A program made the translations under genes and the position numbers. A stretch of 64,000 nt of DNA from a virus. The stretch lies in the UHGV virus genome UHGV-0148165, one strand, 5' to 3'. Every line of letters begins with the position of its first letter. Position 1 is the stretch's first letter. Of this stretch, positions 599 to 24,385 are shown piece after piece. The notes under the pieces are model-generated. The model ran no database searches, was not told the DNA's origin, and saw nothing but the letters and a program-made list of their open reading frames with translations.

Positions 599-600
599 AA

Positions 601-7599: not shown

Positions 7600-7656
7600 T
7601 GGAAGGACTTAGATTCATTATACCATGAAAGTTTTAAAGCATTTTTACATAAAGTT

Positions 7657-7686
7657 GTTTACAAGTTAAGGTAAAAATGTTATAGT
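7657..7686 (+). promoter_or_regulatory. T4 early-type promoter
   Basis: GTTTAC 7657-7662, 18-nt spacer, TATAGT 7681-7686. Confidence 0.5.
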
Positions 7687-7716
7687 ATAAGTAGTTAACC
7701 CGTCCGTGAGAAAAAT

Positions 7717-8463
7717 ATGAAACTGTCTAAAAATCAAATTCGTAAAATTACACGTCGTCTAGAGCACACTCAGGCATCTGCTAAAAGACGTTCTAAAGAT
7801 TTTAACTTAGACTTCAATTACATTAAGAACATTTTAGATCAAAAAGTTTGTGCTTACTCGGGAGAACCTTTTGATAATCGTATTGAAGGAGAGAAATTAT
7901 CATTAGAACGTTTTGATAATAACGTTGGATACATTAAAGGGAATGTTATTGCAGTAAAGAAAAAGTATAATACATTTCGTTCTGATTATACTTTAGAAGA
8001 GTTGATTGAAAAGCGTGATTTATTTGCTTTGCGAATTGGTCGTTCATCTGCGAAAAAAGTTCATAAACTAAAATTAGATGAAAAGAAATGGGCTAAAATC
8101 AAAAAGACTTATAATCAAATTAAAGCTATACAGAAAAAACGTGAAAACCGAATTGAACACATTTCTCAGCTTTCTAAATCAAAACAAACCTCAGACATTA
8201 AGCTAACGATTGTAGCACTCAAAGCTCGTATTGATGGTTCTCGTATAGCAGAAGGCGCTGAAGTTGTTAAATTGAACGTTCTTCTTAAAGGCTCGGATTG
8301 GAAAACTGTGAAAAAGTTGTCAGAAGCAGAAATGCAATATGATATGTGTGATAAAATTATTCAAGGTGTAGAGCGGTATCAAAACTTGTCTTTTATTGAT
8401 AAACTTAAACTGAAAAGAGGATACCCGCTAAATTGTTCAATTTTTAAACTTATCCGAGGATAA
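7717..8463 (+). CDS. srd: Srd-like protein (sigma-related early protein), 248 aa
   Basis: size and position between modB and dda as in T4; basic protein. Confidence 0.55.
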   Translation: MKLSKNQIRKITRRLEHTQASAKRRSKDFNLDFNYIKNILDQKVCAYSGEPFDNRIEGEKLSLERFDNNVGYIKGNVIAVKKKYNTFRSDYTLEELIEKRDLFALRIGRSSAKKVHKLKLDEKKWAKIKKTYNQIKAIQKKRENRIEHISQLSKSKQTSDIKLTIVALKARIDGSRIAEGAEVVKLNVLLKGSDWKTVKKLSEAEMQYDMCDKIIQGVERYQNLSFIDKLKLKRGYPLNCSIFKLIRG

Positions 8464-8464
8464 T

Positions 8465-8776
8465 ATGGTTTATGTATATGCGATAGTTTACCGAGACAAA
8501 GACGGATTTACGGCGCCAGTTCCGCTTGATGAACATCGTCCTGCTGTATTTTTTGAATGGAAGATTGCTGATAAAGTATTTACTACTCTTAAAGAGCAGT
8601 ATCGACTAGCTTTAGGTAAGGGAATTCCAAGATTAGTTGAGACTCCACGTAAATTTTGGTTTAATAAAATAGAAGTTAAACATGTTAAGCCTGACGTAGA
8701 CACACAAAGATTATATCAGCGAATTTTAGATACTGGGCGTATTGTTAGTATACCAATTGCAGGGAATTTACGATGA
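8465..8776 (+). CDS. hypothetical protein, 103 aa
   Basis: complete ORF immediately upstream of dda. Confidence 0.45.
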   Translation: MVYVYAIVYRDKDGFTAPVPLDEHRPAVFFEWKIADKVFTTLKEQYRLALGKGIPRLVETPRKFWFNKIEVKHVKPDVDTQRLYQRILDTGRIVSIPIAGNLR

Positions 8777-10092
8777 CATTTGATGATTTGACCGAAGGCC
8801 AGAAAAATGCCTTTAACATTGTTATGAAGGCTATTAAAGAAAAGAAACACCATGTAACTATTAATGGACCTGCCGGTACCGGTAAGACTACTCTTACTAA
8901 GTTCATCATTGAAGCTTTAATATCTACGGGTGAAACTGGTATTATTTTAGCAGCTCCTACACATGCAGCTAAAAAGATTCTTTCAAAACTGTCAGGGAAA
9001 GAAGCGAGTACTATTCATAGTATTCTTAAAATTAACCCAGTAACATATGAAGAAAATGTTCTTTTTGAACAAAAAGAAGTACCAGATTTAGCTAAATGCA
9101 GAGTATTAATCTGCGATGAAGTGTCAATGTATGATAGAAAGCTATTTAAAATTCTGCTTTCAACTATCCCGCCGTGGTGTACTATAATTGGAATAGGTGA
9201 TAATAAGCAAATTAGACCTGTTGACCCAGGAGAAAATACTGCTTATATCAGTCCATTCTTTACACATAAAGATTTTTATCAGTGTGAACTCACTGAAGTT
9301 AAACGCAGTAATGCTCCTATTATTGATGTAGCTACTGACGTTCGTAACGGTAAGTGGATTTATGATAAAGTTGTTGACGGGCATGGAGTACGTGGATTTA
9401 CTGGTGATACCGCTTTACGCAATTTTATGGTAAATTATTTTTCAATCGTAAAATCACTAGATGATTTGTTTGAAAATCGCGTAATGGCATTTACGAATAA
9501 ATCTGTCGACAAGTTAAATAGTATTATTCGCAAAAAGATTTTTGAAACTGATAAAGATTTTATCGTCGGTGAAATTATTGTAATGCAGGAACCATTAATT
9601 AAAACATATAAAATTGATGGAAAGCCTGTGTCAGAAATTATTTTTAATAACGGACAATTAGTTCGTATTATAGAAGCAGAGTATACATCAACATTTGTTA
9701 AAGCTCGTGGTGTTTCTGGAGAATATCTAATTCGTCATTGGGATTTAACAGTAGAAACTTACGGCGATGATGAATATTATCGTGAAAAGATTAAAATAAT
9801 TTCATCCGATGAAGAATTGTATAAGTTTAACCTATTTTTAGGTAAAACAGCAGAAACTTATAAAAATTGGAACAAAGGCGGAAAAGCTCCGTGGAGTGAT
9901 TTTTGGGATGCTAAATCACAGTTTAGTAAAGTGAAAGCACTTCCTGCATCAACATTCCATAAAGCTCAGGGTATGTCTGTAGACCGTGCTTTCATTTATA
10001 CGCCTTGTATTCATTATGCAGATGCTGAATTGGCCCAACAACTTCTTTATGTTGGTGTTACCCGTGGTCGTTATGATGTATTTTATGTATGA
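8773..10092 (+). CDS. dda: Dda DNA helicase (SF1B), 439 aa
   Basis: Walker A NGPAGTGKTT, Walker B LICDE; length matches T4 Dda. Confidence 0.9.
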   Translation: MTFDDLTEGQKNAFNIVMKAIKEKKHHVTINGPAGTGKTTLTKFIIEALISTGETGIILAAPTHAAKKILSKLSGKEASTIHSILKINPVTYEENVLFEQKEVPDLAKCRVLICDEVSMYDRKLFKILLSTIPPWCTIIGIGDNKQIRPVDPGENTAYISPFFTHKDFYQCELTEVKRSNAPIIDVATDVRNGKWIYDKVVDGHGVRGFTGDTALRNFMVNYFSIVKSLDDLFENRVMAFTNKSVDKLNSIIRKKIFETDKDFIVGEIIVMQEPLIKTYKIDGKPVSEIIFNNGQLVRIIEAEYTSTFVKARGVSGEYLIRHWDLTVETYGDDEYYREKIKIISSDEELYKFNLFLGKTAETYKNWNKGGKAPWSDFWDAKSQFSKVKALPASTFHKAQGMSVDRAFIYTPCIHYADAELAQQLLYVGVTRGRYDVFYV

Positions 10093-10098
10093 TTAAAT

Positions 10099-10359
10099 TT
10101 GAGGAAGCTATTCGTGGAAATAACTAAAGATCAGTTTTATCTTCTTCAAGATAAAGTAAGCGAAATTTATGAAATTGCTTATAGCAAAAATCGTGAAACT
10201 GTAAAAATAGAATCTAGTAAGTTGAGGCTTCAATTAGAAGAAATTGAACGAGATTTAATTGCGTTAGAATTCTTTTGTGGTGAAGTGAAAACTGTTACAA
10301 TCAATGATTATATTTTAGGCGAAATTAGCTATCTTTATAAGGCGATTATTAATGATTGA
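10099..10359 (+). CDS. hypothetical protein, about 81-86 aa, paralog of next ORF
   Basis: track start is TTG 10099, GTG 10114 also possible; shares LEEI..D / I.DY..G.I..L motif pattern with ORF 10352. Confidence 0.4.
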   Translation: MRKLFVEITKDQFYLLQDKVSEIYEIAYSKNRETVKIESSKLRLQLEEIERDLIALEFFCGEVKTVTINDYILGEISYLYKAIIND

Positions 10360-10594
10360 ATTGAGTTGGTACCAGTTTAAATCTCTTATGACAAATGTTA
10401 AAGCTGTCATTGAAGAAAATCCGGGTCCTGAAAATATTACTATTCGCGAAAAAGCTTCAAAGATAGTATACAGTCTTGAAGAGATACAAAAAGACATTGA
10501 ATCTATGGCAAAATTTATTGATGAGCCTATTAATAAAGTTTATATTCAAGACTATACTGTAGGTCAAATTCGCGATTTAGCAAGGAAAATTTAA
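10352..10594 (+). CDS. hypothetical protein, 80 aa, paralog of previous ORF
   Basis: ATG start; tandem paralog pair. Confidence 0.4.
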   Translation: MIELSWYQFKSLMTNVKAVIEENPGPENITIREKASKIVYSLEEIQKDIESMAKFIDEPINKVYIQDYTVGQIRDLARKI

Positions 10595-11277
10595 TGTTTG
10601 ATTTTATTATAGATTTTGAAACAATGGGAAGCGGCGAAAAGGCAGCTGTTATTGATTTAGCTGTAATTGCTTTTGACCCTAATCCAGAAGTCGTTGAAAC
10701 ATTCGATGAATTAGTTTCACGTGGCATTAAAATCAAATTTGATTTAAAAAGCCAAAAAGGACATCGTCTTTTTACTAAAAGCACTATTGAATGGTGGAAG
10801 AACCAATCTCCTGAAGCTCGAAAAAATATTGCACCATCAGATGAAGATGTAAGCACTATCGATGGTATTGCAAAATTTAATGATTACATCAATGCACATA
10901 ATATCGATCCTTGGAAATCTCAAGGCTGGTGCCGTGGAATGTCGTTTGATTTTCCAATTTTAGTCGATCTCATTCGTGATATTCAACGTCTTAATGGTGT
11001 TTCTGAGAATGAGCTTGACACATTTAAGTTAGAACCATGTAAATTCTGGAATCAGCGTGATATTCGTACCAGAATTGAAGCACTTCTGCTTGTTCGTGAT
11101 ATGACCACGTGTCCTCTTCCAAAAGGAACTTTAGATGGATTCGTTGCGCATGATTCTATTCATGACTGTGCGAAAGATATTCTGATGATGAAGTATGCTT
11201 TGCGATATGCTATGGGTCTTGAAGATGCTCCGTCAGAGGAAGATTACGATCCTCTATCTCTTCCAACAAAACGATAA
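10594..11277 (+). CDS. dexA: DexA exonuclease (DnaQ-like 3'-5' exonuclease), 227 aa
   Basis: exonuclease motif FDFETMG near N-terminus, HDSIHDC near C-terminus; length matches T4 DexA. Confidence 0.85.
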   Translation: MFDFIIDFETMGSGEKAAVIDLAVIAFDPNPEVVETFDELVSRGIKIKFDLKSQKGHRLFTKSTIEWWKNQSPEARKNIAPSDEDVSTIDGIAKFNDYINAHNIDPWKSQGWCRGMSFDFPILVDLIRDIQRLNGVSENELDTFKLEPCKFWNQRDIRTRIEALLLVRDMTTCPLPKGTLDGFVAHDSIHDCAKDILMMKYALRYAMGLEDAPSEEDYDPLSLPTKR

Positions 11278-11283
11278 AAAGTT

Positions 11284-11313
11284 GTTTACTTCCTCGGTTA
11301 GTTGTGGTATTAT
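11284..11313 (+). promoter_or_regulatory. T4 early-type promoter
   Basis: GTTTAC 11284-11289, TATTAT 11308-11313. Confidence 0.5.
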
Positions 11314-11340
11314 AACACCATAGCTACTGAGGATAATAAA

Positions 11341-11841
11341 ATGAAAATTTATCGTGTTGAATCATCGTTTAGTATTCTTGATTATGAAGATGCTATAACA
11401 ATACGTCGAAATCTTTGTGTTCAAATAACGCCGTACAGGAGTATAATAGATTCATGGAGCGAAGAGTGGCTATTACACGTAGGTTATGACAGACCTAATT
11501 TTATGCATCATAGCGATAATAATAAAAGAATTCCTTTACCACACGAAGATAAACTATTAGTTAAAAACGCTAATATAGTAATTAATACTAAGTTCAAGAA
11601 AGATTATGTTGGAGTAGAATATCATATTCCAGGATGGTTTATAGCTCTTTATCATTTTGCTTTCGCTAGCGAATATGATATGATGAGATGGTTCACACGA
11701 GAAGAGCGGGAAGAATTATCTTCTAAAGGATTTTATCTCGCTGTATACGAAGTTCCTGAAGATGAAGTTATCATTGGTGGGCACCAAGTAATGTTCCGCA
11801 AATCGCATGCTGAACTCATAGATTTTATTGAAATGAGATAA
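11341..11841 (+). CDS. hypothetical protein, 166 aa
   Basis: ATG 11341 after GAGGATAATAAA; the track ORF start at 11302 lies inside the promoter. Confidence 0.45.
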   Translation: MKIYRVESSFSILDYEDAITIRRNLCVQITPYRSIIDSWSEEWLLHVGYDRPNFMHHSDNNKRIPLPHEDKLLVKNANIVINTKFKKDYVGVEYHIPGWFIALYHFAFASEYDMMRWFTREEREELSSKGFYLAVYEVPEDEVIIGGHQVMFRKSHAELIDFIEMR

Positions 11842-11843
11842 TT

Positions 11844-12389
11844 ATGAAATTTAATTATAATCCTGAATACATACCAAATCCGGTAGCTAAACTGATTGAT
11901 TTTGATGTTGTAAGCACTTATGTATGCCCTGTTAAACCACTGGAAATTAAGGAACCTACTATGACTACCGCTATTGAAATCGGCAAAACCTACAAACTGG
12001 TTGAACCTAAAATTAAAACTAATGCCTTGATTTCTGGTCATAAAACTCTGACTGATGTTTTTGGCGAAGGCGAATTTATTGTTGAAGAATTTGCCAAAAG
12101 TGAGTGGTTTGACAAATCTTACGTCATCCACGGTCGCCGGTTAGATAATAACAAAATAAAGAAAAACCTGGTTTATGAAGATGAGTTCATCCTGTTCCAA
12201 GAAGTTGAAGAACAAGACCCTACAGACCTGTTGTGTGCTGCTGTGTCTATCCGTCGTCCTTTTGATAATCCTATCTGTGGTTGGGTAACAGACCAGTGGA
12301 TTGAAGATGGTGTTGAGCTTCTGAACGTTGTCCATGCAGGAGATTTTAGTGTAGTACCTCGTAGTGCGGTGGTAGCTATTTTGAATTAA
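11844..12389 (+). CDS. hypothetical protein, 181 aa, paralog of the motB-like ORF
   Basis: C-terminal motif CGWVTDQWIEDGVELLNVV shared with ORF 12466. Confidence 0.45.
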   Translation: MKFNYNPEYIPNPVAKLIDFDVVSTYVCPVKPLEIKEPTMTTAIEIGKTYKLVEPKIKTNALISGHKTLTDVFGEGEFIVEEFAKSEWFDKSYVIHGRRLDNNKIKKNLVYEDEFILFQEVEEQDPTDLLCAAVSIRRPFDNPICGWVTDQWIEDGVELLNVVHAGDFSVVPRSAVVAILN

Positions 12390-12391
12390 TA

Positions 12392-12427
12392 GTTTACAAA
12401 CTCTTGGGACCAGAGTATAATGGTCCC
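12392..12427 (+). promoter_or_regulatory. T4 early-type promoter with -10 embedded in a 6-bp inverted repeat
   Basis: GTTTAC 12392-12397, TATAAT 12416-12421, flanked by GGGACC 12406-12411 and GGTCCC 12422-12427. Confidence 0.55.
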
Positions 12428-12465
12428 GTGGAGTATAAAATCTTTTTAACAAGTGAGAGATAATT

Positions 12466-12957
12466 ATGAATATTAATATCGGTGAAATTGCTCGTGTATC
12501 TGATAAATCCCGTTCTAAAGCAGCAGGAAAATTGGTCGAAGTTGTAAGCATTCAGCTTAAACACGGTGTTAAAGATGAAGATTCTGAAGTAAAAGTACGT
12601 ATCATTGCTAAAGATGGAATGTCTAAGCCCCAGTTTGGTTATGTTCGATGGAAATTTCTTGAGCCTGCGTTTTTGAAAGCTGTTCCTGCTAAAGGAATTG
12701 AAACGATTGATACTTCGCATGTAGGTGTAGACTTTAAGTGGAAACTTGGTCAAGCTATCAAGTTCATTGCTCCTTATGAGTTTGAATTTACCGAAGGTGG
12801 ACAACCACTTCCTCAGCGTACTCGCGCTATGTGTGCATACATTACTGATCAATGGGTAGAAGATGGCGTTAAGTTATACAACGCGGTATTTTTAGGAACA
12901 TACAAAGTCATTCCTGAAAGTTGGATTAAACACTACAGCAAAGCTCGCTATGCATAA
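12466..12957 (+). CDS. motB: MotB-like protein, 163 aa
   Basis: size and position as T4 motB (from memory); C-terminal motif ITDQWVEDGVKLYNAV. Confidence 0.45.
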   Translation: MNINIGEIARVSDKSRSKAAGKLVEVVSIQLKHGVKDEDSEVKVRIIAKDGMSKPQFGYVRWKFLEPAFLKAVPAKGIETIDTSHVGVDFKWKLGQAIKFIAPYEFEFTEGGQPLPQRTRAMCAYITDQWVEDGVKLYNAVFLGTYKVIPESWIKHYSKARYA

Positions 12958-12987
12958 AGTTTAAAATTTTTTCATAAAACTATATAC

Positions 12988-13030
12988 ATCAGTAGTTGAT
13001 TATGGTACTATATCAATATCAACTACTGAT
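12988..13030. repeat. perfect 13-bp inverted repeat with 17-bp spacer containing a promoter -10-like element
   Basis: ATCAGTAGTTGAT 12988-13000 and ATCAACTACTGAT 13018-13030; spacer TATGGTACTATATCAAT. Confidence 0.6.
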
Positions 13031-13128
13031 ACAGAAAACAACTTGAAGAATAAAATGGATAATTCGTTAAAGGTGCGCTGATACTCTTCTGAAACGCATC
13101 GCTCCAATGTTCAATTAATGAGGAAATT

Positions 13129-13347
13129 ATGATGAAACGTAAAATTGTTCAGAATTGCACTAATGATGAATTTGAAGATGTATTATTCGATCCAGATTTG
13201 GTAGTAGTTCAAAAGGAACACACTATCAAGTTTACTCACTTGACTTCGGTTTATGTATATGAGAAAGTCGGTGATAAACAGCCGATTTATGGTGTATTCC
13301 GTGAAATCACTGAAGACGGTACAACTTACTGGAAGGAAATTTATTAA
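13129..13347 (+). CDS. hypothetical protein, 72 aa
   Basis: ATG start after GAGGAAATT; small early ORF. Confidence 0.4.
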
Positions 13348-13760
13348 TGGCTATTAGATTTGAAGTTAATAAATGGTATCAATTTAAAAATAAACAAGCT
13401 CAAGAAAATTTTATTAAAGACCATACTGATAACGGAATCTATGCACGCCGTTTAGGTATGCATCCTTTTAAAATTTTAGATGTGGATGCTCTTGGGCGTC
13501 CTATTAAAATTATGTCATTTGCTGGAAATTTAGTACTATCTTCTGGTAAAGATATTTTGGATGAAGATTTTATTTGGCTTTCATCGAATGAAGCTGAATT
13601 CTTTAATGAAGTTGAAAATCCATACCAGGCAGCTGAAGAGCAGGAAGAATCTGCACCGATAACTGATCAATCTAAATTCCCTGTAATGAAAGTTACTATT
13701 GAAAATGATGAACAGGCATGGTCCTTGTATCAGATGTTGAAAGCTCACTTTAAGGAATAA
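13347..13760 (+). CDS. hypothetical protein, 137 aa
   Basis: complete ORF, start overlaps upstream stop. Confidence 0.45.
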
Positions 13761-13762
13761 TT

Positions 13763-13939
13763 ATGCCGCTTTATGATTATAAATGTCAATCAAAAGACTG
13801 CGCAAAAGAATACGAAAAAATCAAGAAAATTTCTGAAAGAGATACTGATGTATGTCCTGATTGTCATCGGATTGCTATTCGGTTAGTCTCTGCCCCTAAG
13901 CATGTGAATGGCGGATTTTACGACTTACTTAAAGGGTAA
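13763..13939 (+). CDS. small zinc-ribbon protein, 58 aa (CxxC...CxxC)
   Basis: below track cut-off, read manually; YKCQSKDC ... VCPDC motif. Confidence 0.4.
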   Translation: MPLYDYKCQSKDCAKEYEKIKKISERDTDVCPDCHRIAIRLVSAPKHVNGGFYDLLKG

Positions 13940-13941
13940 TT

Positions 13942-14313
13942 ATGTTTAAAATTGGTAAGAAATATCGCATTCGCGAAGGTGAAGAAAAGAAATATCTATT
14001 TTCTGCTATTTATAGGAATGGTTCTATTAGTAATGTAATATCTACAAGCGAATTTATCGTTGAAGATATGAAAGGTAATAATGTTACAATGATTAGTACA
14101 GCATCTGGAAATGACGGAAAAATTCTTCACAGTCTTCGGAGTGAAGTTTTAATTTATGATGAAGAATTTGACTTCTTCGAAGAAGTTCCCGAAGATTTTG
14201 ATTTTGAATGCACTATTACTATGAAGTCTGGTGACCCTCTTTCTTTTACAGTTAAAGATGAAAGAAGTCGCTTGAGAGTTATTAGCCTTCTTCAAGCCAT
14301 TAAATTTAAGTGA
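13942..14313 (+). CDS. hypothetical protein, 123 aa
   Basis: complete ORF with ATG 13942. Confidence 0.45.
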   Translation: MFKIGKKYRIREGEEKKYLFSAIYRNGSISNVISTSEFIVEDMKGNNVTMISTASGNDGKILHSLRSEVLIYDEEFDFFEEVPEDFDFECTITMKSGDPLSFTVKDERSRLRVISLLQAIKFK

Positions 14314-14579
14314 AAATTATGAAATATATTAATCGTTCTATCGCGGCATTAGTACTAGTAGTGTCTTTAGTAGGATGTACTGATGCTGATAATGCAACTA
14401 AAATTTTGTCTTCAAGTGGTTTTACTAATATTGAAATCACTGGATATAACTGGTTCGGTTGCTCTGAAAATGATTTCCAGCATACTGGATTTCGTGCTAT
14501 TGGACCTACTGGGCAGAAAGTAGAAGGAACCGTGTGTTCTGGGTTGTTCTTTAAGGATTCGACTATCCGTTTTAAATAA
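14310..14579 (+). CDS. putative lipoprotein, 89 aa
   Basis: signal peptide with lipobox LVGC (MKYINRSIAALVLVVSLVGCTD). Confidence 0.5.
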   Translation: MKIMKYINRSIAALVLVVSLVGCTDADNATKILSSSGFTNIEITGYNWFGCSENDFQHTGFRAIGPTGQKVEGTVCSGLFFKDSTIRFK

Positions 14580-14648
14580 AAGGCCTTCGGGCCTTTAGCT
14601 TTATGAATACCGGAGTATAATATTCCCGAAACCAAACGAGGATAAGTG

Positions 14649-16466
14649 ATGATTAAGAATGAAATTAAAATTCTGAGCGATATTGAACATATCAAAAAGC
14701 GTAGTGGCATGTACATTGGCTCTTCAGCTAATGAAATGCATGAGCGCTTTCTGTTTGGTAAATGGGAAAGTGTTCAGTATGTACCTGGTCTTGTTAAGCT
14801 TATTGATGAAATTATCGATAACTCAGTAGATGAAGGTATTCGTACTAAGTTTAAATTCGCAAATAAAATTAATGTTACTATTAAAAACAATCAAGTAACA
14901 GTTGAAGATAACGGTCGCGGTATTCCACAAGCGATGGTTAAAACACCTACCGGTGAAGAAATTCCTGGTCCTGTTGCTGCATGGACTATTCCAAAAGCAG
15001 GTGGTAACTTCGGTGATGATAAAGAACGTGTCACCGGTGGTATGAACGGTGTTGGTTCTAGTTTGACAAACATTTTTTCTGTGATGTTTGTCGGTGAAAC
15101 TGGTGATGGTCAAAATAATATTGTAGTTCGTTGTTCAAATGGCATGGAAAATAAATCATGGGAAGATATTCCTGGAAAATGGAAAGGAACTCGTGTTACT
15201 TTCATTCCTGATTTTATGTCATTTGAAACTAATGAGCTGTCCCAAGTTTATCTTGACATTACATTAGATCGTCTCCAGACACTTGCAGTAGTTTATCCTG
15301 ATATTCAATTTACCTTTAATGGTAAAAAGGTTCAGGGCAATTTTAAGAAATATGCACGCCAATATGATGAGCATGCTATTGTTCAAGAACAAGAAAATTG
15401 TTCTATTGCAGTTGGTCGTTCACCGGATGGTTTTCGTCAATTAACATACGTTAATAACATTCATACTAAGAATGGTGGCCATCACATTGACTGTGTTATG
15501 GATGATATTTGTGAAGACCTTATTCCACAAATCAAACGTAAGTTCAAAATTGATGTGACTAAAGCACGCGTCAAAGAATGTTTGACTATCGTTATGTTTG
15601 TTCGTGATATGAAAAACATGCGATTTGATTCTCAAACTAAAGAACGTTTGACTTCTCCATTTGGCGAAATTCGTAGTCATATTCAACTTGATGCTAAAAA
15701 GATTTCACGTGCTATTTTGAATAATGAAGCAATTTTAATGCCGATTATTGAAGCTGCTTTGGCTCGTAAATTGGCGGCAGAAAAAGCAGCAGAAACTAAA
15801 GCAGCTAAAAAGGCTTCTAAAGCTAAGGTTCATAAACATATCAAAGCGAATCTTTGTGGTAAAGATGCTGACACTACTCTTTTCTTGACTGAGGGTGATT
15901 CGGCTATCGGATATCTTATTGATGTTCGTGATAAAGAACTTCACGGTGGTTATCCATTGCGCGGTAAAGTTCTCAACAGTTGGGGTATGTCATATGCTGA
16001 TATGCTTAAAAACAAAGAATTGTTTGATATTTGCGCAATCACTGGATTAGTTCTTGGTGAAAAAGCCGAAAACTTGAATTATCATAATATTGCTATTATG
16101 ACCGATGCTGACCACGATGGTCTAGGAAGCATTTATCCTTCTCTGCTCGGATTTTTTAGTAATTGGCCAGAACTGTTTGAACAAGGAAGAATTCGCTTTG
16201 TCAAAACTCCTGTAATCATCGCTCAGGTCGGTAAAAAACAAGAATGGTTTTATACAGTCGCTGAATATGAGAGTGCTAAAGATGCTCTACCTAAACATAG
16301 CATCCGTTATATTAAAGGACTTGGCTCTTTGGAAAAATCTGAATATCGTGAGATGATTCAAAACCCAGTATATGATGTTGTTAAACTTCCTGAGAACTGG
16401 AAAGAGCTTTTTGAAATGCTCATGGGAGATAATGCTGACCTTCGTAAAGAATGGATGAGCCAGTAG
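14649..16466 (+). CDS. 39: DNA topoisomerase II large subunit gp39, GyrB-like, uninterrupted 605-aa form
   Basis: GHKL ATPase motifs (NSVDEG, DNGRGIP, GGMNGVGSS) plus TOPRIM region (LTEGDSA, DADHDG) in one ORF; ATG 14649. Confidence 0.9.
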   Translation: MIKNEIKILSDIEHIKKRSGMYIGSSANEMHERFLFGKWESVQYVPGLVKLIDEIIDNSVDEGIRTKFKFANKINVTIKNNQVTVEDNGRGIPQAMVKTPTGEEIPGPVAAWTIPKAGGNFGDDKERVTGGMNGVGSSLTNIFSVMFVGETGDGQNNIVVRCSNGMENKSWEDIPGKWKGTRVTFIPDFMSFETNELSQVYLDITLDRLQTLAVVYPDIQFTFNGKKVQGNFKKYARQYDEHAIVQEQENCSIAVGRSPDGFRQLTYVNNIHTKNGGHHIDCVMDDICEDLIPQIKRKFKIDVTKARVKECLTIVMFVRDMKNMRFDSQTKERLTSPFGEIRSHIQLDAKKISRAILNNEAILMPIIEAALARKLAAEKAAETKAAKKASKAKVHKHIKANLCGKDADTTLFLTEGDSAIGYLIDVRDKELHGGYPLRGKVLNSWGMSYADMLKNKELFDICAITGLVLGEKAENLNYHNIAIMTDADHDGLGSIYPSLLGFFSNWPELFEQGRIRFVKTPVIIAQVGKKQEWFYTVAEYESAKDALPKHSIRYIKGLGSLEKSEYREMIQNPVYDVVKLPENWKELFEMLMGDNADLRKEWMSQ

Positions 16467-16495
16467 TTTACTTTACCACAAGGATGTGGTATAAT
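16466..16495 (+). promoter_or_regulatory. T4 early-type promoter upstream of rIIA
   Basis: GTTTAC 16466-16471, 18-nt spacer, TGG-TATAAT 16490-16495. Confidence 0.55.
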
Positions 16496-16520
16496 TAATT
16501 GGGCAAATGAGGATATTGAA

Positions 16521-16724
16521 ATGAAATCATATAAAGTAAATTTAGAACTTTTTGATAAAGCAGTTCATCGAGAATATAGAATCATTCAACGCTTTTTCGA
16601 TATGGGAGAAGCTGAAGAGTTTAAAAACCGCTTTAAGGATATTAGAGATAAAATTCAATCTGACACCGCAACTAAAGATGAACTACTAGAAGTTGCTGAA
16701 GTTATTAAACGCAATATGAATTAA
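16521..16724 (+). CDS. hypothetical protein, 67 aa (rIIA.1-position ORF)
   Basis: ATG after GAGGATATTGAA; between gene 39 and rIIA. Confidence 0.45.
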
Positions 16725-16734
16725 TGAGGAAATT

Positions 16735-18912
16735 ATGATTATCACCACTGAAAAAGAAATAATTCTTGGTAATGGTTCTAAATCAAAAGCATTTAGCATC
16801 ACAGCATCTCCTAAAGTATTTAAAATTCTGTCATCTGATTTGTATACAAACAAGATTCGCGCAGTAGTCCGTGAATTGATTACTAACATGATTGATGCTC
16901 ATGCACTTAATGGAAATCCTGAAAAATTTATTATACAAGTTCCTGGACGTTTAGATCCGCGATTTGTTTGTCGAGATTTTGGTCCGGGTATGAGTGATTT
17001 TGATATTCAAGGTGATGATAATTCTCCTGGGTTGTATAATTCATACTTCAGTTCATCTAAAGCTGAATCTAATGACTTTATTGGCGGATTTGGTTTAGGT
17101 TCTAAATCTCCGTTTAGTTATACTGATACGTTTAGTATTACTTCGTATCATAAAGGTGAAATTCGTGGTTATGTAGCTTACATGGATGGTGATGGCCCAC
17201 AGATTAAACCTACATTCGTAAAAGAAATGGGTCCAGATGATAAAACTGGTATTGAAATCGTAGTTCCAGTTGAAGAAAAAGATTTTAGAAACTTTGCTTA
17301 TGAAGTTTCTTATATCATGCGACCGTTCAAAGATTTGGCTATCATTAATGGTCTTGACCGCGAAATTGATTATTTTCCTGATTTCGATGATTATTACGGC
17401 GTAAATCCAGAAAGATACTGGCCTGATCGTGGTGGATTATATGCTATCTACGGCGGTATTGTTTATCCTATCGATGGTGTTATTAGAGACCGTAACTGGC
17501 TAAGCATTCGCAATGAAGTGAATTACATTAAGTTTCCAATGGGTTCATTGGATATTGCTCCATCTCGTGAGGCTCTTTCACTGGATGATCGCACTCGTAA
17601 AAATATCATTGAACGAGTTAAAGAACTCAGTGAGAAAGCATTTAATGAAGATGTAAAACGATTTAAAGAATCTACATCTCCTCGTCACACATATCGTGAA
17701 TTAATGAAGATGGGGTATTCTGCTCGAGATTATATGATTAGTAATTCAGTCAAATTCACGACTAAAAATCTGTCATATAAGAAGATGCAGAGCATGTTTG
17801 AACCTGACAGTAAGTTATGCAATGCAGGAGTTGTGTATGAAGTAAATCTTGACCCTCGACTGAAGCGCATTAAGCAAAGTCATGAAACTTCAGCCGTTGC
17901 ATCAAGTTATCGTCTGTTTGGTATTAATACAACAAAAATTAATATCGTTATTGATAATATTAAAAATCGTGTTAATATTGTTCGTGGATTAGCACGAGCG
18001 TTAGATGATAGTGAATTTAATAACACTTTGAATATTCATCATAACGAACGTCTTCTGTTTATTAATCCAGAAGTAGAATCGCAGATTGATTTACTCCCTG
18101 ATATTATGGCGATGTTTGAAAGTGATGAAGTTAACATTCATTATTTGTCAGAAATTGAAGCTTTAGTAAAAAGTTATATTCCAAAGGTAGTTAAAAGTAA
18201 AGCTCCTCGTCCTAAAGCTGCTACAGCATTTAAGTTTGAAATTAAAGATGGGCGCTGGGAAAAAGAGGAATTATTTACACTTACGTCAGAAGCAGATGAA
18301 ATTACTGGTTATGTAGCGTATATGCATCGTTCTGATATTTTCTCTATGGATGGTACTACATCTCTTTGTCATCCATCTATGAATATTTTGACTCGTATGG
18401 CTAATCTTATTGGCATTAATGAATTTTATGTTATTCGTCCGCTTTTACAGAAAAAGGTAAAAGAACTTGGTCAGTGCCAATGTATTTTTGAAGCTTTGCG
18501 TGATTTATATGTAGATGCTTTTGATGATGTAGATTATGATAAGTACGTAGGTTATTCAAGTTCAGCTCAACGATATATTGATAAAATTATCAAGTATCCT
18601 GAACTAGATTTTATGATGAAGTACTTCAGTACAGATGAAGTTTCTGAAGAATATACACGACTCGCTAATATAGTTAGTTCATTACGGGGCGTATATTTCA
18701 ATGGTGGAAAAGATACCATCGGTCATGACATCTGGACAGTAACTAATCTTTTTGATGTATTATCAAATAATGCTTCAAAAAACAGTGATAAAATGGTTGC
18801 TGAGTTTACCAAGAAATTCCGTATTGTTTCCGACTTCATCGGTTATCGCAACTCTTTAAGTGATGATGAAGTTTCCCAAATCGCTAAAACTATGAAGGCC
18901 CTTGCGGCCTAA
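16735..18912 (+). CDS. rIIA: rIIA protein, 725 aa
   Basis: length identical to T4 rIIA; N-terminal ATPase-like region; followed directly by rIIB. Confidence 0.9.
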
Positions 18913-18923
18913 TAAGGAAAATT

Positions 18924-19862
18924 ATGTACAATATTAAATGCCTGACCAAAAACGAACAAGCTGAAATTGTTAAACTGTATTCAAGTGGTAATTACACCCA
19001 ACAGGAATTGGCTGATTGGCAAGGTGTATCGGTTGACACAATCCGTCGTGTTTTGAAAAATGCTGAAGAAGCTAAACGCCCTAAAGTTACTATTAGCGGT
19101 GATATTACAGTTAAAGTTAATAGCGATGCAGTTATTGCTCCAGTTGCTAAATCTGACATTATTTGGAATGCATCTAAAAAATTCATTTCAATTACTGTTG
19201 ACGGTGTAACTTATAACGCAACTCCTAATACTCATTCAAACTTCCAGGAAATTCTTAATCTGCTTGTAGCGGATAAGTTGGAAGAAGCGGCACAAAAAAT
19301 TAATGTTCGTCGCGCTGTTGAAAAATATATTTCCGGCGATGTTCGAATTGAAGGTGGAAGCTTGTTCTATCAAAATATTGAATTGCGGTCTGGTTTGGTT
19401 GATCGTATTCTTGACTCGATGGAAAAAGGCGAAAACTTTGAATTTTATTTTCCGTTCTTGGAAAATCTGCTGGAAAACCCAAGCCAAAAAGCAGTATCTC
19501 GACTCTTTGATTTCTTGGTAGCAAACGATATTGAAATTACAGAAGATGGCTACTTCTATGCTTGGAAAGTAGTTCGCAGCAATTACTTTGACTGTCACTC
19601 AAACACCTTTGATAACAGTCCGGGTAAAGTAGTTAAAATGCCACGTACTCGTGTGAACGACGATGATACACAAACTTGTTCTCGTGGTCTGCATGTGTGT
19701 TCTAAATCTTATATTCGTCACTTTGGCAGTTCAACCAGCCGAGTTGTAAAAGTTAAAGTTCATCCTCGCGATGTAGTATCAATTCCGATTGATTACAACC
19801 ATGCTAAAATGCGTACCTGCCAATACGAAGTAGTTGAAGACGTTACTGAACAATTTAAATAA
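18924..19862 (+). CDS. rIIB: rIIB protein, 312 aa
   Basis: length identical to T4 rIIB; position after rIIA. Confidence 0.9.
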   Translation: MYNIKCLTKNEQAEIVKLYSSGNYTQQELADWQGVSVDTIRRVLKNAEEAKRPKVTISGDITVKVNSDAVIAPVAKSDIIWNASKKFISITVDGVTYNATPNTHSNFQEILNLLVADKLEEAAQKINVRRAVEKYISGDVRIEGGSLFYQNIELRSGLVDRILDSMEKGENFEFYFPFLENLLENPSQKAVSRLFDFLVANDIEITEDGYFYAWKVVRSNYFDCHSNTFDNSPGKVVKMPRTRVNDDDTQTCSRGLHVCSKSYIRHFGSSTSRVVKVKVHPRDVVSIPIDYNHAKMRTCQYEVVEDVTEQFK

Positions 19863-19875
19863 GGGCTTCGGCCCT
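19862..19875 (+). terminator. UUCG-tetraloop RNA hairpin after rIIB (no T-run; stability element or weak terminator)
   Basis: AGGGC-TTCG-GCCCT immediately after rIIB stop. Confidence 0.4.
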
Positions 19876-19890
19876 TAACTAAGGAAAATT

Positions 19891-20085
19891 ATGTTAGGTT
19901 ATCAAGCACGAGTAAAAGAAGAATACGATCAATTAATGCTCAAAATTAATGCACTGAGCAATTTTTTAGAAAGCGCAAAGTTTCTAACAGTTAGTGCAGT
20001 TGAGCAAGAACTGCTACTTTCACAGTTCATCTCAATGAAATCTTATGCTGAATGTCTAGAGAAAAGAATTGCACAATTCAAATAA
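19891..20085 (+). CDS. hypothetical protein, 64 aa
   Basis: ATG after AAGGAAAATT; flanked by two hairpins. Confidence 0.4.
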   Translation: MLGYQARVKEEYDQLMLKINALSNFLESAKFLTVSAVEQELLLSQFISMKSYAECLEKRIAQFK

Positions 20086-20087
20086 AT

Positions 20088-20110
20088 AAGGGCTTCGGCC
20101 CTTTTGTTTT
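20088..20110 (+). terminator. intrinsic terminator, UUCG hairpin plus T-run
   Basis: AAGGGC-TTCG-GCCCTT followed by TTGTTTT. Confidence 0.55.
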
Positions 20111-20169
20111 AAGAGAAATTATGATTTATTATACGAATATCAGTGATTTCGACATAAAGGAAAGTTTAA

Positions 20170-20727
20170 ATGCAGAAAACAAATCCTGGGTTACAGAGAC
20201 TATTTCAGATTCCGACATTTACCCTATCGAACAGTGACTTGACTAGTGAAATGAAGGTCAAAATTGCTGATACAGCAAGATACTCTTTAAAACAAAACCC
20301 GAACCAGGATAAAGCAGAAGTTATCGAAAGATGCCGTATCGCGGTGTACGCAGAGTTTTTTGTAGCAGATTGGCTAAGCGGGTATGTTAACAAAGGCCAA
20401 GAGGATGTTAATGACCCATATACATACGCATGGGATGTATTGGCGCATCCAAGATACTGCGGGCTTCGTGTAGAAGTTAAGACACATCAAACTGACTCAC
20501 GTTGGATTTCTGTAACAACAGGATGCAGCGGAGAGTATCCATATGGTTCTGGAATAAATCTAGGGCCCATTCTGAATCATCAGGTCGCTGACTGTATAAT
20601 TATATTCAACACTAAAGAAATTCACCCAGGTGTCATTCAGTACACTCCGAAGTTCATTGGTGATAGAGAAGACCTTCGTAAGGTTGTAAGAAAAAGCAAC
20701 TACAACGGATGGTATCTTTCCATTTAA
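20170..20727 (+). CDS. denB: endonuclease IV DenB, 185 aa
   Basis: length matches T4 DenB; position between rIIB and ndd. Confidence 0.75.
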   Translation: MQKTNPGLQRLFQIPTFTLSNSDLTSEMKVKIADTARYSLKQNPNQDKAEVIERCRIAVYAEFFVADWLSGYVNKGQEDVNDPYTYAWDVLAHPRYCGLRVEVKTHQTDSRWISVTTGCSGEYPYGSGINLGPILNHQVADCIIIFNTKEIHPGVIQYTPKFIGDREDLRKVVRKSNYNGWYLSI

Positions 20728-20743
20728 AAATTTTCACAAAACG

Positions 20744-20773
20744 GTTTACATACCACAAGGACTGTGGTACTAT
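20744..20773 (+). promoter_or_regulatory. strong T4 early promoter with AT-rich UP element
   Basis: AAAAATTTTCACAAAACG then GTTTAC 20744-20749, 18-nt spacer, TGG-TACTAT 20768-20773. Confidence 0.6.
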
Positions 20774-20800
20774 ACAACTATCAGCTACGGAGGAGTAAAA

Positions 20801-21064
20801 ATGAAATTTAAATTTTATTACGCTAAACATAAAATTACCGGTGAATTTATTGCATTTACGACTTCAACTACAGATGAAGGAGATATTTTTACTGCAGTAT
20901 TTTTATCAAAATGGGAATCAGATCAACCTTACTTATCATCACGTGAAGATCTCCAACGATTAGTTAATGGAGAATATAATGATTCATGGTCATATTTAGT
21001 CCATGATTGTGTTAAAAAGGCAATAAAACAAAAACACTTGGAAATCGTTGAGATTGAACTATGA
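20801..21064 (+). CDS. hypothetical protein, 87 aa
   Basis: ATG after GGAGGAGTAAAA. Confidence 0.5.
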   Translation: MKFKFYYAKHKITGEFIAFTTSTTDEGDIFTAVFLSKWESDQPYLSSREDLQRLVNGEYNDSWSYLVHDCVKKAIKQKHLEIVEIEL

Positions 21065-21147
21065 GTTCATTATGGTGGTGTTTTGTTTGGTTAATTAGTA
21101 TTCCAGTAATTTGTTTAACATTTACTTTTGTGATGAGGTTATTATGA
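21061..21147 (+). CDS. tiny hydrophobic peptide, 28 aa
   Basis: read manually; ATGA overlap with upstream stop; MSSLWWCFVWLISIPVICLTFTFVMRLL. Confidence 0.3.
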   Translation: MSSLWWCFVWLISIPVICLTFTFVMRLL

Positions 21148-21242
21148 AAATTTTGAATTCTGTACTTATTGCTTGTGCGTGGTGGGTTGTGCAAGTTTCA
21201 GCGGTAGTAGTTGGTATTCACATTTATTACGAATATTTTTAA
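21144..21242 (+). CDS. tiny hydrophobic peptide, 32 aa
   Basis: read manually; start overlaps previous stop; MKILNSVLIACAWWVVQVSAVVVGIHIYYEYF. Confidence 0.3.
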   Translation: MKILNSVLIACAWWVVQVSAVVVGIHIYYEYF

Positions 21243-21248
21243 AAAGTT

Positions 21249-21278
21249 GTTTACAAGACTGTTCTTCCGTGGTACTAT
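21249..21278 (+). promoter_or_regulatory. T4 early-type promoter
   Basis: GTTTAC 21249-21254, 18-nt spacer, TACTAT 21273-21278. Confidence 0.5.
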
Positions 21279-21306
21279 TACCCTATCAACTACGGAGGAA
21301 CAGAAA

Positions 21307-21420
21307 ATGAAAAAGATTGTTAAAGCTATATGGAATGTAGTTATAATACTAATAGTTTTGAGTATATTCCCAATCGTTTTAATGATTGATGTATTAAACG
21401 TTTACTTTGGATTTATGTGA
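21307..21420 (+). CDS. small membrane peptide, 37 aa
   Basis: ATG 21307 after GGAGGAA; track ORF 21211 starts inside the promoter; hydrophobic core VVIILIVLSIFPIVLMI. Confidence 0.35.
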   Translation: MKKIVKAIWNVVIILIVLSIFPIVLMIDVLNVYFGFM

Positions 21421-21427
21421 GGAAAAT

Positions 21428-21625
21428 ATGAAGCGTAAACGCAGTGCTTTTACATTTATTGAATGGTTTTTCGATAATATTTTTCCGGCTTTATTCATTT
21501 TCATGCTGATTTTTGCCTTAGGTTCAGTTGTAGTTGGAATTTATTTGATGACGGTAGTCGGAATGGATATTCATCAAAATGGTTTAAAATCCGTGGTTGA
21601 AACAATTTGGAATGGTGTAAAATGA
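21428..21625 (+). CDS. small membrane protein, 65 aa
   Basis: ATG 21428 after GAGGAAAAT; hydrophobic segment FPALFIFMLIFALGSVVVGIYLMTVV. Confidence 0.4.
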   Translation: MKRKRSAFTFIEWFFDNIFPALFIFMLIFALGSVVVGIYLMTVVGMDIHQNGLKSVVETIWNGVK

Positions 21626-21732
21626 TGAATTTGCTGAGTGGTTGGTTTTATATTCTTATGTTTTACATTGGTGCAAATTTCCCATATTGGATGGGATGGT
21701 CAACAACTGCATTTGGATTTTATACTCCTTGA
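21622..21732 (+). CDS. tiny hydrophobic peptide, 36 aa
   Basis: read manually; ATGA overlap; aromatic-rich MMNLLSGWFYILMFYIGANFPYWMGW. Confidence 0.3.
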   Translation: MMNLLSGWFYILMFYIGANFPYWMGWSTTAFGFYTP

Positions 21733-21740
21733 GGTGAATT

Positions 21741-21956
21741 ATGAAAAGTTTTAAAGATGTAAAAGTTGGTGAAATTTTTTGTTTAGATAACGGTGATCAG
21801 TTAATTCGTATTTCACCTCTTAAGAGCACTAGCGAGAAAATGACAGTTAACGCTACTTTAGAAAATAATAGTAATGAACGTTTCTGTATTGAAAATGATA
21901 CTGAAACTTATACCGTAGAAGAATTCTGGGAATTGAGCGTCGACTGCGACGATTAA
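21741..21956 (+). CDS. hypothetical protein, 71 aa
   Basis: ATG after GAGGTGAATT. Confidence 0.45.
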   Translation: MKSFKDVKVGEIFCLDNGDQLIRISPLKSTSEKMTVNATLENNSNERFCIENDTETYTVEEFWELSVDCDD

Positions 21957-22016
21957 TTTATCGGCCGTGTGTATTCATACGGCCTTGGAGTAGAAAATAA
22001 TTTAGAGGAAATTAAT

Positions 22017-22472
22017 ATGAAATATATGACTGTTACTGATCTGAATAATGCAGGCGCAACTGTTATTGGTACAATCAAGGGTGGTGAGTGGTTTTTGGGA
22101 ACTCCGCACAAAGACATTTTGTCTAAACCTGGATTTTACTTTTTAGTGAGTAAACTCGGTGGTCCATTTAGTAGTCCATGCGTATCTGCACGATTTTATG
22201 TAGGTAATCAGCGTTCTAAGCAAGGATTCAGTGCGGTTTTAAGTCATATTCGTCAACGCCGGTCTCAGCTTGCGCGTACTATTGCAAATAACAATGTTCC
22301 ATACACAGTATTTTATCTGCCTGCTTCTAAGATGAAACCTCTGACGACAGGATTTGGAAAAGGTCAGTTAGCTTTGGCGTTTACTCGTAATCATCATTCT
22401 GAGTATCAAACACTTGAAGAAATGAACCGCATGTTGGCTGATAACTTTAAATTCGTTTTGCAGGCATATTAA
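22017..22472 (+). CDS. ndd: nucleoid disruption protein Ndd, 151 aa
   Basis: 151 aa from ATG 22017 (track ORF starts at upstream alternative start); position next to stp/ac as in T4. Confidence 0.65.
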
Positions 22473-22552
22473 TGAGTAATTTCCACAACGAACACGTGAT
22501 GCAGTTCTATCGTAACAATCTTAAAACCAAAGGCGTCTTCGGACGCCAGTGA
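22472..22552 (+). CDS. stp: Stp peptide, 26 aa
   Basis: read manually; [26 protein letters not shown]; TAATG overlap with ndd stop; 3' end folds as UUCG hairpin. Confidence 0.6.
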
Positions 22553-22559
22553 GGAAAAT

Positions 22560-22718
22560 ATGAATATCGCAAAATTATTAGGAGTTATTTCATTTATTTG
22601 TTGGATAGTAGCATGTGTTTTAACTATCTGTATTGATGCCAGCAGTGTGTTTTCGCAAGCTTTAGCTCAGGGTATGTGTGCATATTTAACATTTGTGTTG
22701 TTATCTACTAATGATTAA
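22560..22718 (+). CDS. ac: small membrane protein, 52 aa (ac-type)
   Basis: read manually; ATG after GAGGAAAAT; hydrophobic MNIAKLLGVISFICWIVACVLTICID. Confidence 0.5.
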   Translation: MNIAKLLGVISFICWIVACVLTICIDASSVFSQALAQGMCAYLTFVLLSTND

Positions 22719-22851
22719 GAAAATCTTGGGCTATTCATTAGCCCTTGCTATTTTATTGATAGCATTATATTACGGAATAATGTTCGGATTAATTCAAGTC
22801 GTGCTTTTCATTTCTGATGTTATTATGGCACTACATTCACTAGTATGGTAA
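22711..22851 (+). CDS. small membrane peptide, 46 aa
   Basis: read manually; start overlaps ac stop; stop 4 nt before gene 52 ATG. Confidence 0.35.
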   Translation: MIKKILGYSLALAILLIALYYGIMFGLIQVVLFISDVIMALHSLVW

Positions 22852-22855
22852 ATTT

Positions 22856-24184
22856 ATGCAACTGAATAATCGTGATTTAAAAAGTATCATTGATAATGAA
22901 GCATTGGCTTATGCTATGTACACGGTTGAAAATCGTGCCATTCCAAATATGATTGACGGATTTAAGCCAGTTCAACGATTTGTTATTGCTCGAGCTCTTG
23001 ATTTGGCACGAGGAAATAAAGATAAGTTTCACAAACTCGCTTCTATCGCAGGCGGTGTAGCGGACCTTGGATATCATCATGGTGAAAACTCTGCGCAAGA
23101 CGCAGGTGCTTTGATGGCTAACACTTGGAATAATAACTTTCCTCTGTTAGACGGTCAAGGAAACTTTGGTTCTCGTACTGTCCAAAAGGCAGCAGCAAGT
23201 CGTTATATTTTTGCTCGTGTAAGTAAAAATTTCTATAACGTATATAAAGATACTGAATATGCTCCAGTACATCAAGATAAAGAACACATTCCGCCTGCTT
23301 TCTATTTGCCTATTATTCCTACTGTTCTTCTTAATGGCGTTTCCGGTATTGCAACTGGTTATGCAACTTACATTCTTCCTCATAGTGTTTCTTCTGTCAA
23401 GAAAGCTGTACTGCAAGCTCTTCAAGGAAAGAAAGTAACTAAACCGAAGGTAGAATTCCCAGAATTTCGTGGTGAAGTCGTTGAAATTGATGGGCAATAT
23501 GAAATTCGTGGAACATATAAGTTTACTTCACGAACTCAAATGCATATCACTGAGATTCCGTATAAGTATGATCGTGAAACTTACGTGAGTAAAATCTTAG
23601 ACCCGCTTGAAGATAAAGGCTTCATTACATGGGATGATGCTTGCGGTGAGCATGGTTTTGGCTTTAAAATTAAATTCCGCAAAGAATACTCTTTGAGCGA
23701 TAATGAAGAAGAACGCCATGCAAAAATTATGAAAGACTTCGGGTTGATTGAGCGTCGTTCTCAGAATATTACGGTTATTAATGAAAAAGGAAAGCTACAA
23801 GTTTACGATAACGTAGTTGATTTAATTAAAGACTTCGTTGAAGTTCGTAAAACTTATGTCCAAAAACGAATTGATAACAAAATTAAAGAAACTGAGTCAG
23901 CTTTTCGTTTAGCCTTTGCCAAGGCACATTTCATTAAGAAAGTAATTTCAGGTGAAATCGTTGTGCAGGGTAAAACTCGTAAAGAACTGACCGAAGAACT
24001 TTCGAAAATCGATATGTATTCTTCTTATGTTGATAAACTAGTTGGAATGAATATTTTTCACATGACTTCTGATGAAGCAAAGAAACTTGCTGAAGAAGCT
24101 AAAGCCAAAAAAGAAGAAAACGAATATTGGAAAACTACTGATGTAGTTACAGAATACACCAAAGATTTAGAGGAAATCAAATGA
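22856..24184 (+). CDS. 52: DNA topoisomerase II medium subunit gp52, GyrA-like, 442 aa
   Basis: length identical to T4 gp52; GyrA-like N-terminal region. Confidence 0.9.
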   Translation: MQLNNRDLKSIIDNEALAYAMYTVENRAIPNMIDGFKPVQRFVIARALDLARGNKDKFHKLASIAGGVADLGYHHGENSAQDAGALMANTWNNNFPLLDGQGNFGSRTVQKAAASRYIFARVSKNFYNVYKDTEYAPVHQDKEHIPPAFYLPIIPTVLLNGVSGIATGYATYILPHSVSSVKKAVLQALQGKKVTKPKVEFPEFRGEVVEIDGQYEIRGTYKFTSRTQMHITEIPYKYDRETYVSKILDPLEDKGFITWDDACGEHGFGFKIKFRKEYSLSDNEEERHAKIMKDFGLIERRSQNITVINEKGKLQVYDNVVDLIKDFVEVRKTYVQKRIDNKIKETESAFRLAFAKAHFIKKVISGEIVVQGKTRKELTEELSKIDMYSSYVDKLVGMNIFHMTSDEAKKLAEEAKAKKEENEYWKTTDVVTEYTKDLEEIK

Positions 24185-24330: not shown

Positions 24331-24335
24331 TTTTA

Positions 24336-24360
24336 GGGAGAGCCGAGGCTCTCCCTTTTT
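24336..24360 (+). terminator. intrinsic terminator
   Basis: GGGAGAGCC-GA-GGCTCTCCC stem followed by TTTTT. Confidence 0.7.
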
Positions 24361-24385
24361 ATTTTAAAAATTTTTTCACAAAACG

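Follow-up and report, generated by a model that had tools for sequence, protein, structure and literature searches.

The uninterrupted form of gene 39 is an established, textbook arrangement in T-even phages. Huang et al. reportedly described it in 1985, when T6 gp39 was equated with T4 gp39 plus gp60, and Bonocora et al. are said to have described it in 2011 along with the mobile-cassette explanation of the split. The structures of both forms of the topoisomerase were published in 2024 (Nat Commun 2024). Topoisomerase II (Topo II) of T2 and T6 consists of two subunits (gp39 and gp52), whereas that of T4 consists of three (gp39, gp60, and gp52) and carries an insertion of ~70 aa in TOPRIM (PMC11461880). 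For T6 gp39 and gp52, both the structure and the relaxation activity have been determined experimentally; 8YLU represents T6 Topo II and 8YO3 represents T4 Topo II (PMC11461880). The PDB entries for T6 are 8YLU, 8YO1, 8YO5, 8YO7, 8YOD, 8YON, and 9IMJ.

In T4 (NC_000866), gene 39 occupies 3778-5328 and gene 60 occupies 2458-2990, and mobA/60.1 and a 50-nt bypass are present as well. The T4 cassette (2794-3910) comprises the 3' tail of gene 39, mobA together with 60.1, the gene 60 5' part, and the bypass of 50 nt annotated at 2803-2852, and it supplies a 43-aa C-terminal extension (CTE) on gp39, a 30-aa N-terminal extension (NTE) on gp60, a (pseudo)mobA, and a coding gap. In a study of the MobA element, the 5' insertion was placed at aa 466-473, with a 472-aa N-terminal portion, 64 nt were deleted upon insertion, the DNA identity of homR to the parental sequence was 67-81%, and the element was reported at one single site, in Topo2L (bioRxiv 10.1101/2022.08.31.505936). 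As that preprint summarises the work of Bonocora et al. (2011), MobA nicks T2 in this region and copies the cassette in, the nick lying ~20 nt upstream of the bypass location (bioRxiv 10.1101/2022.08.31.505936).

Here, we analysed gene 39 in a 64-kb stretch of viral DNA, and "the window" below means the whole of this stretch. We conclude that the ORF at 14649..16466 is almost certainly the "parental", uninterrupted form of gene 39 from a T-even phage (Tequatrovirus), encoding one 605-aa polypeptide with a GHKL ATPase domain, a transducer domain, and a complete TOPRIM domain.

Reading frame, domains, and neighbours of gene 39

In the six-frame ORF list, the gene lies within a single long + strand ORF (14646..16466), the first codon of which is GTG at 14646. 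Translation from the next codon, the ATG at 14649, yields a product of 605 aa, with TAG (16464-16466) as the stop codon. This ATG is likely the start codon, because a Shine-Dalgarno sequence (GAGGA, 14638-14642) sits 6 nt upstream of it and because MIKNEIK opens gp39 of T2, T4, and T6 alike. With the base composition of the window, a run of 606 open codons has a chance probability of ~3e-21. An earlier annotation of this DNA, the sequence-only reading, had described one uninterrupted 605-aa ORF in which the ATPase and TOPRIM regions are combined, and our analysis agreed on both points, as HATPase_c was matched and the motifs LTEGDSA and DADHDG stand in the same frame. The span it had noted, 14649-16724, takes in the small ORF as well as gene 39, since 16724 is the end of rIIA.1 and gene 39 stops at 16466.

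The 1818 nt of gene 39 matched gene 39 of T6 (1771/1818) and T2 (1750/1818) position for position with zero gaps, and these ungapped alignments revealed no hidden frameshift. The 3.2-kb gene 39 region was collinear in 483 phage records. T2 gp39 (AP018813, 2447-4264) likewise has 605 aa, starts and stops in the same register, and differs at one position (F70 here, L in T2), with 96.3% DNA identity between the genes and mostly synonymous changes. T6 gp39 (MH550421, 2447-4264) also has 605 aa and differs at two positions (D173T and Q526H), with 97.4% DNA identity between the genes. The protein identity to these characterised gp39 proteins is thus 99.7-99.8%. In AP018813, T2 gp39 is labelled only "hypothetical protein".

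Three Pfam domains exceeded their gathering scores in gp39, namely HATPase_c, DNA_gyraseB, and TOPRIM_C (Table 1). Residues 1-380 matched the crystal chain of the T6 ATPase domain (9imj_A, E=9e-258), and in phmmer searches the whole protein aligned 1-605 on 1-605 with T6 chain 8ylu_C (1385 bits, two substitutions), while the T4 gp39-gp60 fusion construct 8yo3_C was matched as two separate segments (query 1-473 and 472-605). The TOPRIM domain, which is divided between gp39 and gp60 in T4, is continuous in the window phage, its metal-binding residues lying in one frame as E415 (15891-15893) within LTEGDSA and as D486, D488, and D490 within DADHDG (486-491). Together with R438, K440, and K556, these are the metal-binding and DNA-contact residues of T6 Topo II (PMC11461880), and all of them are conserved in gp39 here. 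The window encodes a complete B-type subunit of a type IIA topoisomerase and also its A-type partner, the product of gene 52, which matched Pfam DNA_topoisoIV (E=6.2e-77).

Table 1. Features of the gene 39 locus and of gene 52, in window coordinates.
Feature	Position	Strand	Basis
Hairpin GGCCTTCGGGCC (14582-14593), then AGCTTTA, 12 nt, TATAAT	14582..14621	+	Stretch nearly identical in T4, T2, T6, SHFML-26
Gene 39, uninterrupted 605-aa GyrB-like large subunit of T-even topoisomerase II	14649..16466, stop codon included	+	ORF and full-length T6 gp39 match
GHKL ATPase domain core (aa 47-149)	14787..15095	+	Pfam HATPase_c E=2e-9, 38.3 bits, cut-off 26.4
Transducer (GyrB second) domain (aa 250-384), QTK at 329-331	15396..15800	+	Pfam DNA_gyraseB E=1.4e-13, 51.1 bits, cut-off 27
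TOPRIM domain (about aa 406-518)	15864..16202	+	TOPRIM regions of topo II / ParE chains match from aa 406 on
64-nt "parental" block, empty site of MobA element	16067..16130	+	blastn breakpoints; T4 has 1117 bp (2794-3910) instead
Codon G491 (GGT), counterpart of T4 gene 60 take-off codon GGA	16119..16121	+	Base-level alignment and codon table
TOPRIM-associated C-terminal domain (aa 519-604)	16203..16460	+	Pfam TOPRIM_C E=4.2e-7, 30.7 bits, cut-off 29
Promoter-like TTTACT-17-TATAAT with TG extension, in gene 39/rIIA.1 gap	16467..16495	+	Consensus match only, 10/12
rIIA.1 (67 aa)	16521..16724	+	Pfam T4_RIIA1 E=1.4e-33, 1-67/67; position as in T4
rIIA (725 aa)	16735..18912	+	98.1% DNA identity to T4 rIIA; annotated rIIA in T4, T6, SHFML-26
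Gene 52, 442-aa GyrA-like cleavage-religation subunit, gp39 partner	22856..24184	+	phmmer 1-442 to 8yo3_A / 8ylu_A, E ~1e-297

The arrangement had been described as being of the T2/T6 type, and the T2 and T6 records indeed show a layout identical to that of the window, with an 1818-bp gene 39, a 54-bp gap, rIIA.1, a 10-bp gap, and rIIA. The single 67-aa ORF noted between gene 39 and rIIA is rIIA.1. In T6 the layout is the same as in the window also with respect to a 123-aa ORF between 39.2 and 39.1, whereas the T2 neighbours upstream of gene 39 differ, forming two alignment blocks upstream of 13062. The window phage is not T6, to which its identity is ~95% over 12000-18912. The closest phage at the 3.2-kb locus was Shigella phage SHFML-26 (98.3%), and the best genome match in the phage collection reached ~97% over 25 kb, with none higher, the window phage itself being absent from that collection; the window is a mosaic. 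The assertion of the sequence-only reading that the phage is not T4 was confirmed, as the 1117-bp T4 cassette is missing and a 372-bp ORF (13942..14313), which has no counterpart in T4, is present.

Two candidate expression signals flank the gene (Table 1). The upstream one looks like a T4 middle-promoter arrangement, in which AGCTTTA, 12 nt, and TATAAT presumably correspond to the elements of T4 MotA-dependent middle promoters. The putative downstream promoter lies between gene 39 and rIIA.1, in a 54-bp gap that is 100% identical in T4, T2, T6, and SHFML-26.

Comparison with the split gene of T4

We aligned gp39 with T4 gp39 and gp60 by blastp, using the translations from the T4 RefSeq record NC_000866. 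This alignment, which had been proposed as a check on the unsplit reading, matched in both halves, with 466/473 identities to T4 gp39 residues 1-473 and 128/134 identities (96%) between residues 472-605 and T4 gp60 residues 27-160. The frame of gene 39 runs past A473 into ENLNYHN... with no early end, and the residues homologous to gp60 follow in the same frame as aa 472-605, with no separate gene 60. A C-terminal third unrelated to gp60 is ruled out by the identity of this segment to gp60.

At the DNA level, blastn against the reverse complement of T4 1-9000 placed window 14317-16066 on T4 5661-3911 (96.5%) and window 16131-18923 on T4 2793-1 (98.1%), with clean breakpoints at 16066/16067 and 16130/16131. 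Relative to gene 39, the flanks share 96.5% identity with T4 over the 1.4 kb on the N-terminal side and 98% beginning at I495. The flanks of gene 39 are 96-100% identical to T4, T2, and T6 alike, and only the 64-nt block between the two breakpoints differs from T4, being 92-95% identical to T6, T2, and SHFML-26 and 56% identical to T4. At G491, the window reads GAT GGT CTA GGA AGC without interruption (L-G-S following), whereas T4 at the same site reads GAT GGA (TAG...50 nt...GGA) TTA GGT TCT. In the base-level alignment and the codon table, no stop codon, hairpin, or 50-nt gap was present after G491.

No trace of the cassette was recovered from the window. The two halves of the T4 bypass, GGATAGCCTTCGGGCTATCTATAG and AAATACCTCATAATTAAGAGATTATTGGA, gave no match with three or fewer mismatches on either strand of the whole 64 kb. 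The region that had been suggested for a bypass search, 16466-16735, was misplaced, because the equivalent site lies inside the ORF at 16119-16121 and 16466-16735 consists of the conserved 54-bp gap and rIIA.1. The intact 272-aa MobA of phage T4T found no match in the 64 kb by tblastn at E up to 10, and there is no room for mobA between the gene halves because the length of gene 39 equals that in T2 and T6. With tblastn, the T4 gp39 CTE and the T4 gp60 NTE gave only chance-level matches in the window (E of at least 0.3 and at least 1.1, respectively). The T4 1117-bp insert found its sole blastn match over 46 nt (78%) at 16075-16120, which is the expected similarity of homR to the parental sequence. 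The claim that gene 60 is not split off here is therefore upheld by the absence of the cassette, mobA, CTE, NTE, and bypass.

These features agree with those published for "parental Topo2L" genomes (bioRxiv 10.1101/2022.08.31.505936). The 5' breakpoint falls at aa 473, within the range of 466-473, the 3' breakpoint of clade 1 in that study lies 9 nt beyond the landing position, as it does at G491 here, and the 64-nt deletion and the 78% homR identity (range 67-81%) are the same as or within the reported values. Gene 39 of the window is one more example of this uninvaded "parental Topo2L" allele, with no substantive difference.

Frequency of the two forms and alternative explanations

We surveyed the phage collection with a query of 401 nt spanning the junction, and a record was counted as uninterrupted when one place covered at least 80% of the query. 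The query matched 500 phage records at 543 places, which is 43 more places than records. An uninterrupted junction was found in 456 phage records, while exactly 43 carried the T4 cassette (T4 isolates, T4T, RB55, RB59, HY01, and similar phages). Each listed record had a single place, with OK018184.1 (two places) as the sole exception. The unsplit gene 39 is the majority "parental" state, roughly 10:1 over the split, because of these 456 records against 43. Describing the unsplit form as a T2/T6 type was therefore right in that T2 and T6 have it, but the form is not peculiar to them and is found in the majority of records.

This ratio bears on whether the unsplit state is ancestral or secondary. 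Gene 39 might once have been split by a MobA element and later healed by recombination with an uninvaded co-infecting relative, an account that we consider improbable. It would fit with both flanks being equally near to T4 (96.5-98.5%), T2, and T6, with recombination among T-even phages, which is plausible given that the window is a mosaic with no collection genome above ~97%, and with the close pairing, inside each clade, of genomes that carry the insert and genomes that lack it (bioRxiv 10.1101/2022.08.31.505936). However, the 64-nt block has the parental sequence type, the window showed no remnant of CTE, NTE, or mobA, and lineages reported to have lost the endonuclease retain both the CTE and the NTE as scars (bioRxiv 10.1101/2022.08.31.505936). 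Ancestry is the simpler reading because the unsplit form outnumbers the split by about 10:1. A perfect gene conversion would be invisible in the sequence, and a history of healing would not alter the identity or the role of the gene.

The chance that the reading frame is artefactual or that the gene is a pseudogene, whether through an undetected frameshift, chimerism in the assembly, or inactivation of the copy, is negligible; no evidence in favour of this view was found, and it is refuted by the ungapped alignment with T2 and T6, the intact catalytic residues, the high identity to gp60, and the collinear phage records. It is just as hard to credit that the unsplit gene 39 is one of two copies, with a second MobA/bypass cassette or a separate gene 60 located elsewhere. 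The window covers just 64 kb of a genome of some 168 kb, which leaves space for such a copy, yet MobA had no match in these 64 kb and the 1117-bp insert gave the expected match at 16075-16120 alone, the element has been reported at one Topo2L site only (bioRxiv 10.1101/2022.08.31.505936), and the listed records, apart from OK018184.1, show a single place each. An uninterrupted, parental gene 39 is thus the reading that we adopt, and no feature of the sequence speaks against it.

Proposed function and significance

Considering the solved T6 enzyme, two copies of gp39 and two of gp52 would assemble into an A2B2 type IIA topoisomerase, which would use ATP to drive the passage of one DNA duplex through a transient double-strand break and would in this way support phage DNA replication. 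By the same comparison, the gp39/gp52 enzyme is predicted to relax DNA in an ATP-dependent manner and to be sensitive to m-AMSA (PMC11461880). The enzyme of T4 has three subunits and its gene 60 relies on ribosomal bypassing, whereas neither applies to the window phage. Because the TOPRIM domain would be translated in one piece, no subunit-assembly insertion and no ribosomal bypass should be needed, and neither gp39/gp60 assembly nor the 50-nt bypass would be required of a gene 39 that the MobA element has not invaded.

In the proposed model, gene 39 would have escaped invasion by the MobA homing endonuclease, and the 64-nt block 16067-16130 would represent the intact homing site that the inserting element deletes. 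We infer that this block is a target for MobA homing and would be sensitive to MobA; it shares 95% identity with the T2 sequence that MobA is reported to nick. The phage is, in our judgement, rather probably a naive recipient. Upon co-infection with a phage carrying active MobA (T4T, RB55), its gene 39 would then receive a nick ~20 nt upstream of G491 and become the split allele with the bypass. If this holds true, it would be a further instance of the homing already shown for T2 and not a new phenomenon.

The finding matters little beyond annotation. The product is properly labelled gp39, the complete topoisomerase II large subunit, and the terms "DNA gyrase subunit B" and "hypothetical protein", which appear in several database records, should be avoided. 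From its gene 39, the phage can be classed as a Tequatrovirus other than T4 in which the MobA homing site is uninvaded. The count of unsplit against split records is modest but useful, as the famous arrangement of T4 turns out to be the minority state.

Small genes upstream of gene 39

The 86-aa homolog of gp39.1 begins with MKYINRSIAALVLVVSLVGC, a signal-peptide-like stretch that contains a lipobox-like LVGC. The corresponding N-terminal portion of the T4 sequence sits in another frame and the lipobox-like Cys is exchanged (…SLINS), so that only the 65-aa C-terminal part is annotated as 39.1 in T4. A small putative lipoprotein may exist in truncated form in T4 and be whole in T2, T6 and the phage studied here. 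The neighboring 123-aa ORF gave no Pfam match; it has no counterpart in T4, whose alignment skips over it, whereas T6 has it under the label "similar to RB69ORF005c" and SHFML-26 also carries it.

Positions of the features in the window
Feature	Position	Strand	Remarks
D12-class N6-adenine DNA methyltransferase, 259 aa	2485..3264	+	Pfam MethyltransfD12, E=5.3e-51
39.2-like zinc-ribbon gene	13763..13939
123-aa ORF	13942..14313	+	between the zinc-ribbon gene and 39.1
gp39.1 homolog, 86 aa	14319..14579	+
Hairpin and AGCTTTA/TATAAT stretch	14582..14621	+	immediately past the 39.1 stop
Gene 39/rIIA.1 gap, 54 bp	16467..16520	+
265-aa ORF	27873..28670	-	Pfam GP38 (tail-fibre adhesin), E=1.1e-66, and Gp38_N

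Putative noncoding signals around gene 39

Downstream of 39.1 comes a GC-rich hairpin whose loop is UUCG (GGCCTTCGGGCC). After the hairpin come AGCTTTA, 12 nt and TATAAT, an arrangement resembling in sequence a T4 middle (MotA-dependent) promoter, and the whole stretch is nearly identical across T4, T2 and T6. The gap that separates gene 39 from rIIA.1 shows 100% identity in T4, T2, T6 and SHFML-26, whereas its coding flanks differ by 2-4%, and it holds a promoter-like site of the extended -10 type that is close to consensus (TTTACT-17-TGgTATAAT, score 10/12).

Relation to known phages and host recognition

When window positions 1..25000 were compared with a collection of 50,697 phage records, the best match was vB_EcoM-CHD16UKE1, and across the greater part of the query no record was more than about 97% identical. 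With a best identity of about 97% over these first 25 kb, the source is either a Tequatrovirus outside the collection or a mosaic of known members of that genus. In the public phage T2 record (AP018813, 2189..4264), gene 39 is labelled "hypothetical protein", rIIA.1 "transaldolase" and 39.1 "XRE family transcriptional regulator"; these labels are mis-annotations of well-characterised genes.

The methyltransferase ORF is presumably the T-even Dam. The 265-aa ORF is one that we take to be the T2/T6-type receptor-binding gp38, as opposed to the smaller gp38 chaperone of T4. Its GP38 match provides independent support for T2/T6-like host recognition by this phage.
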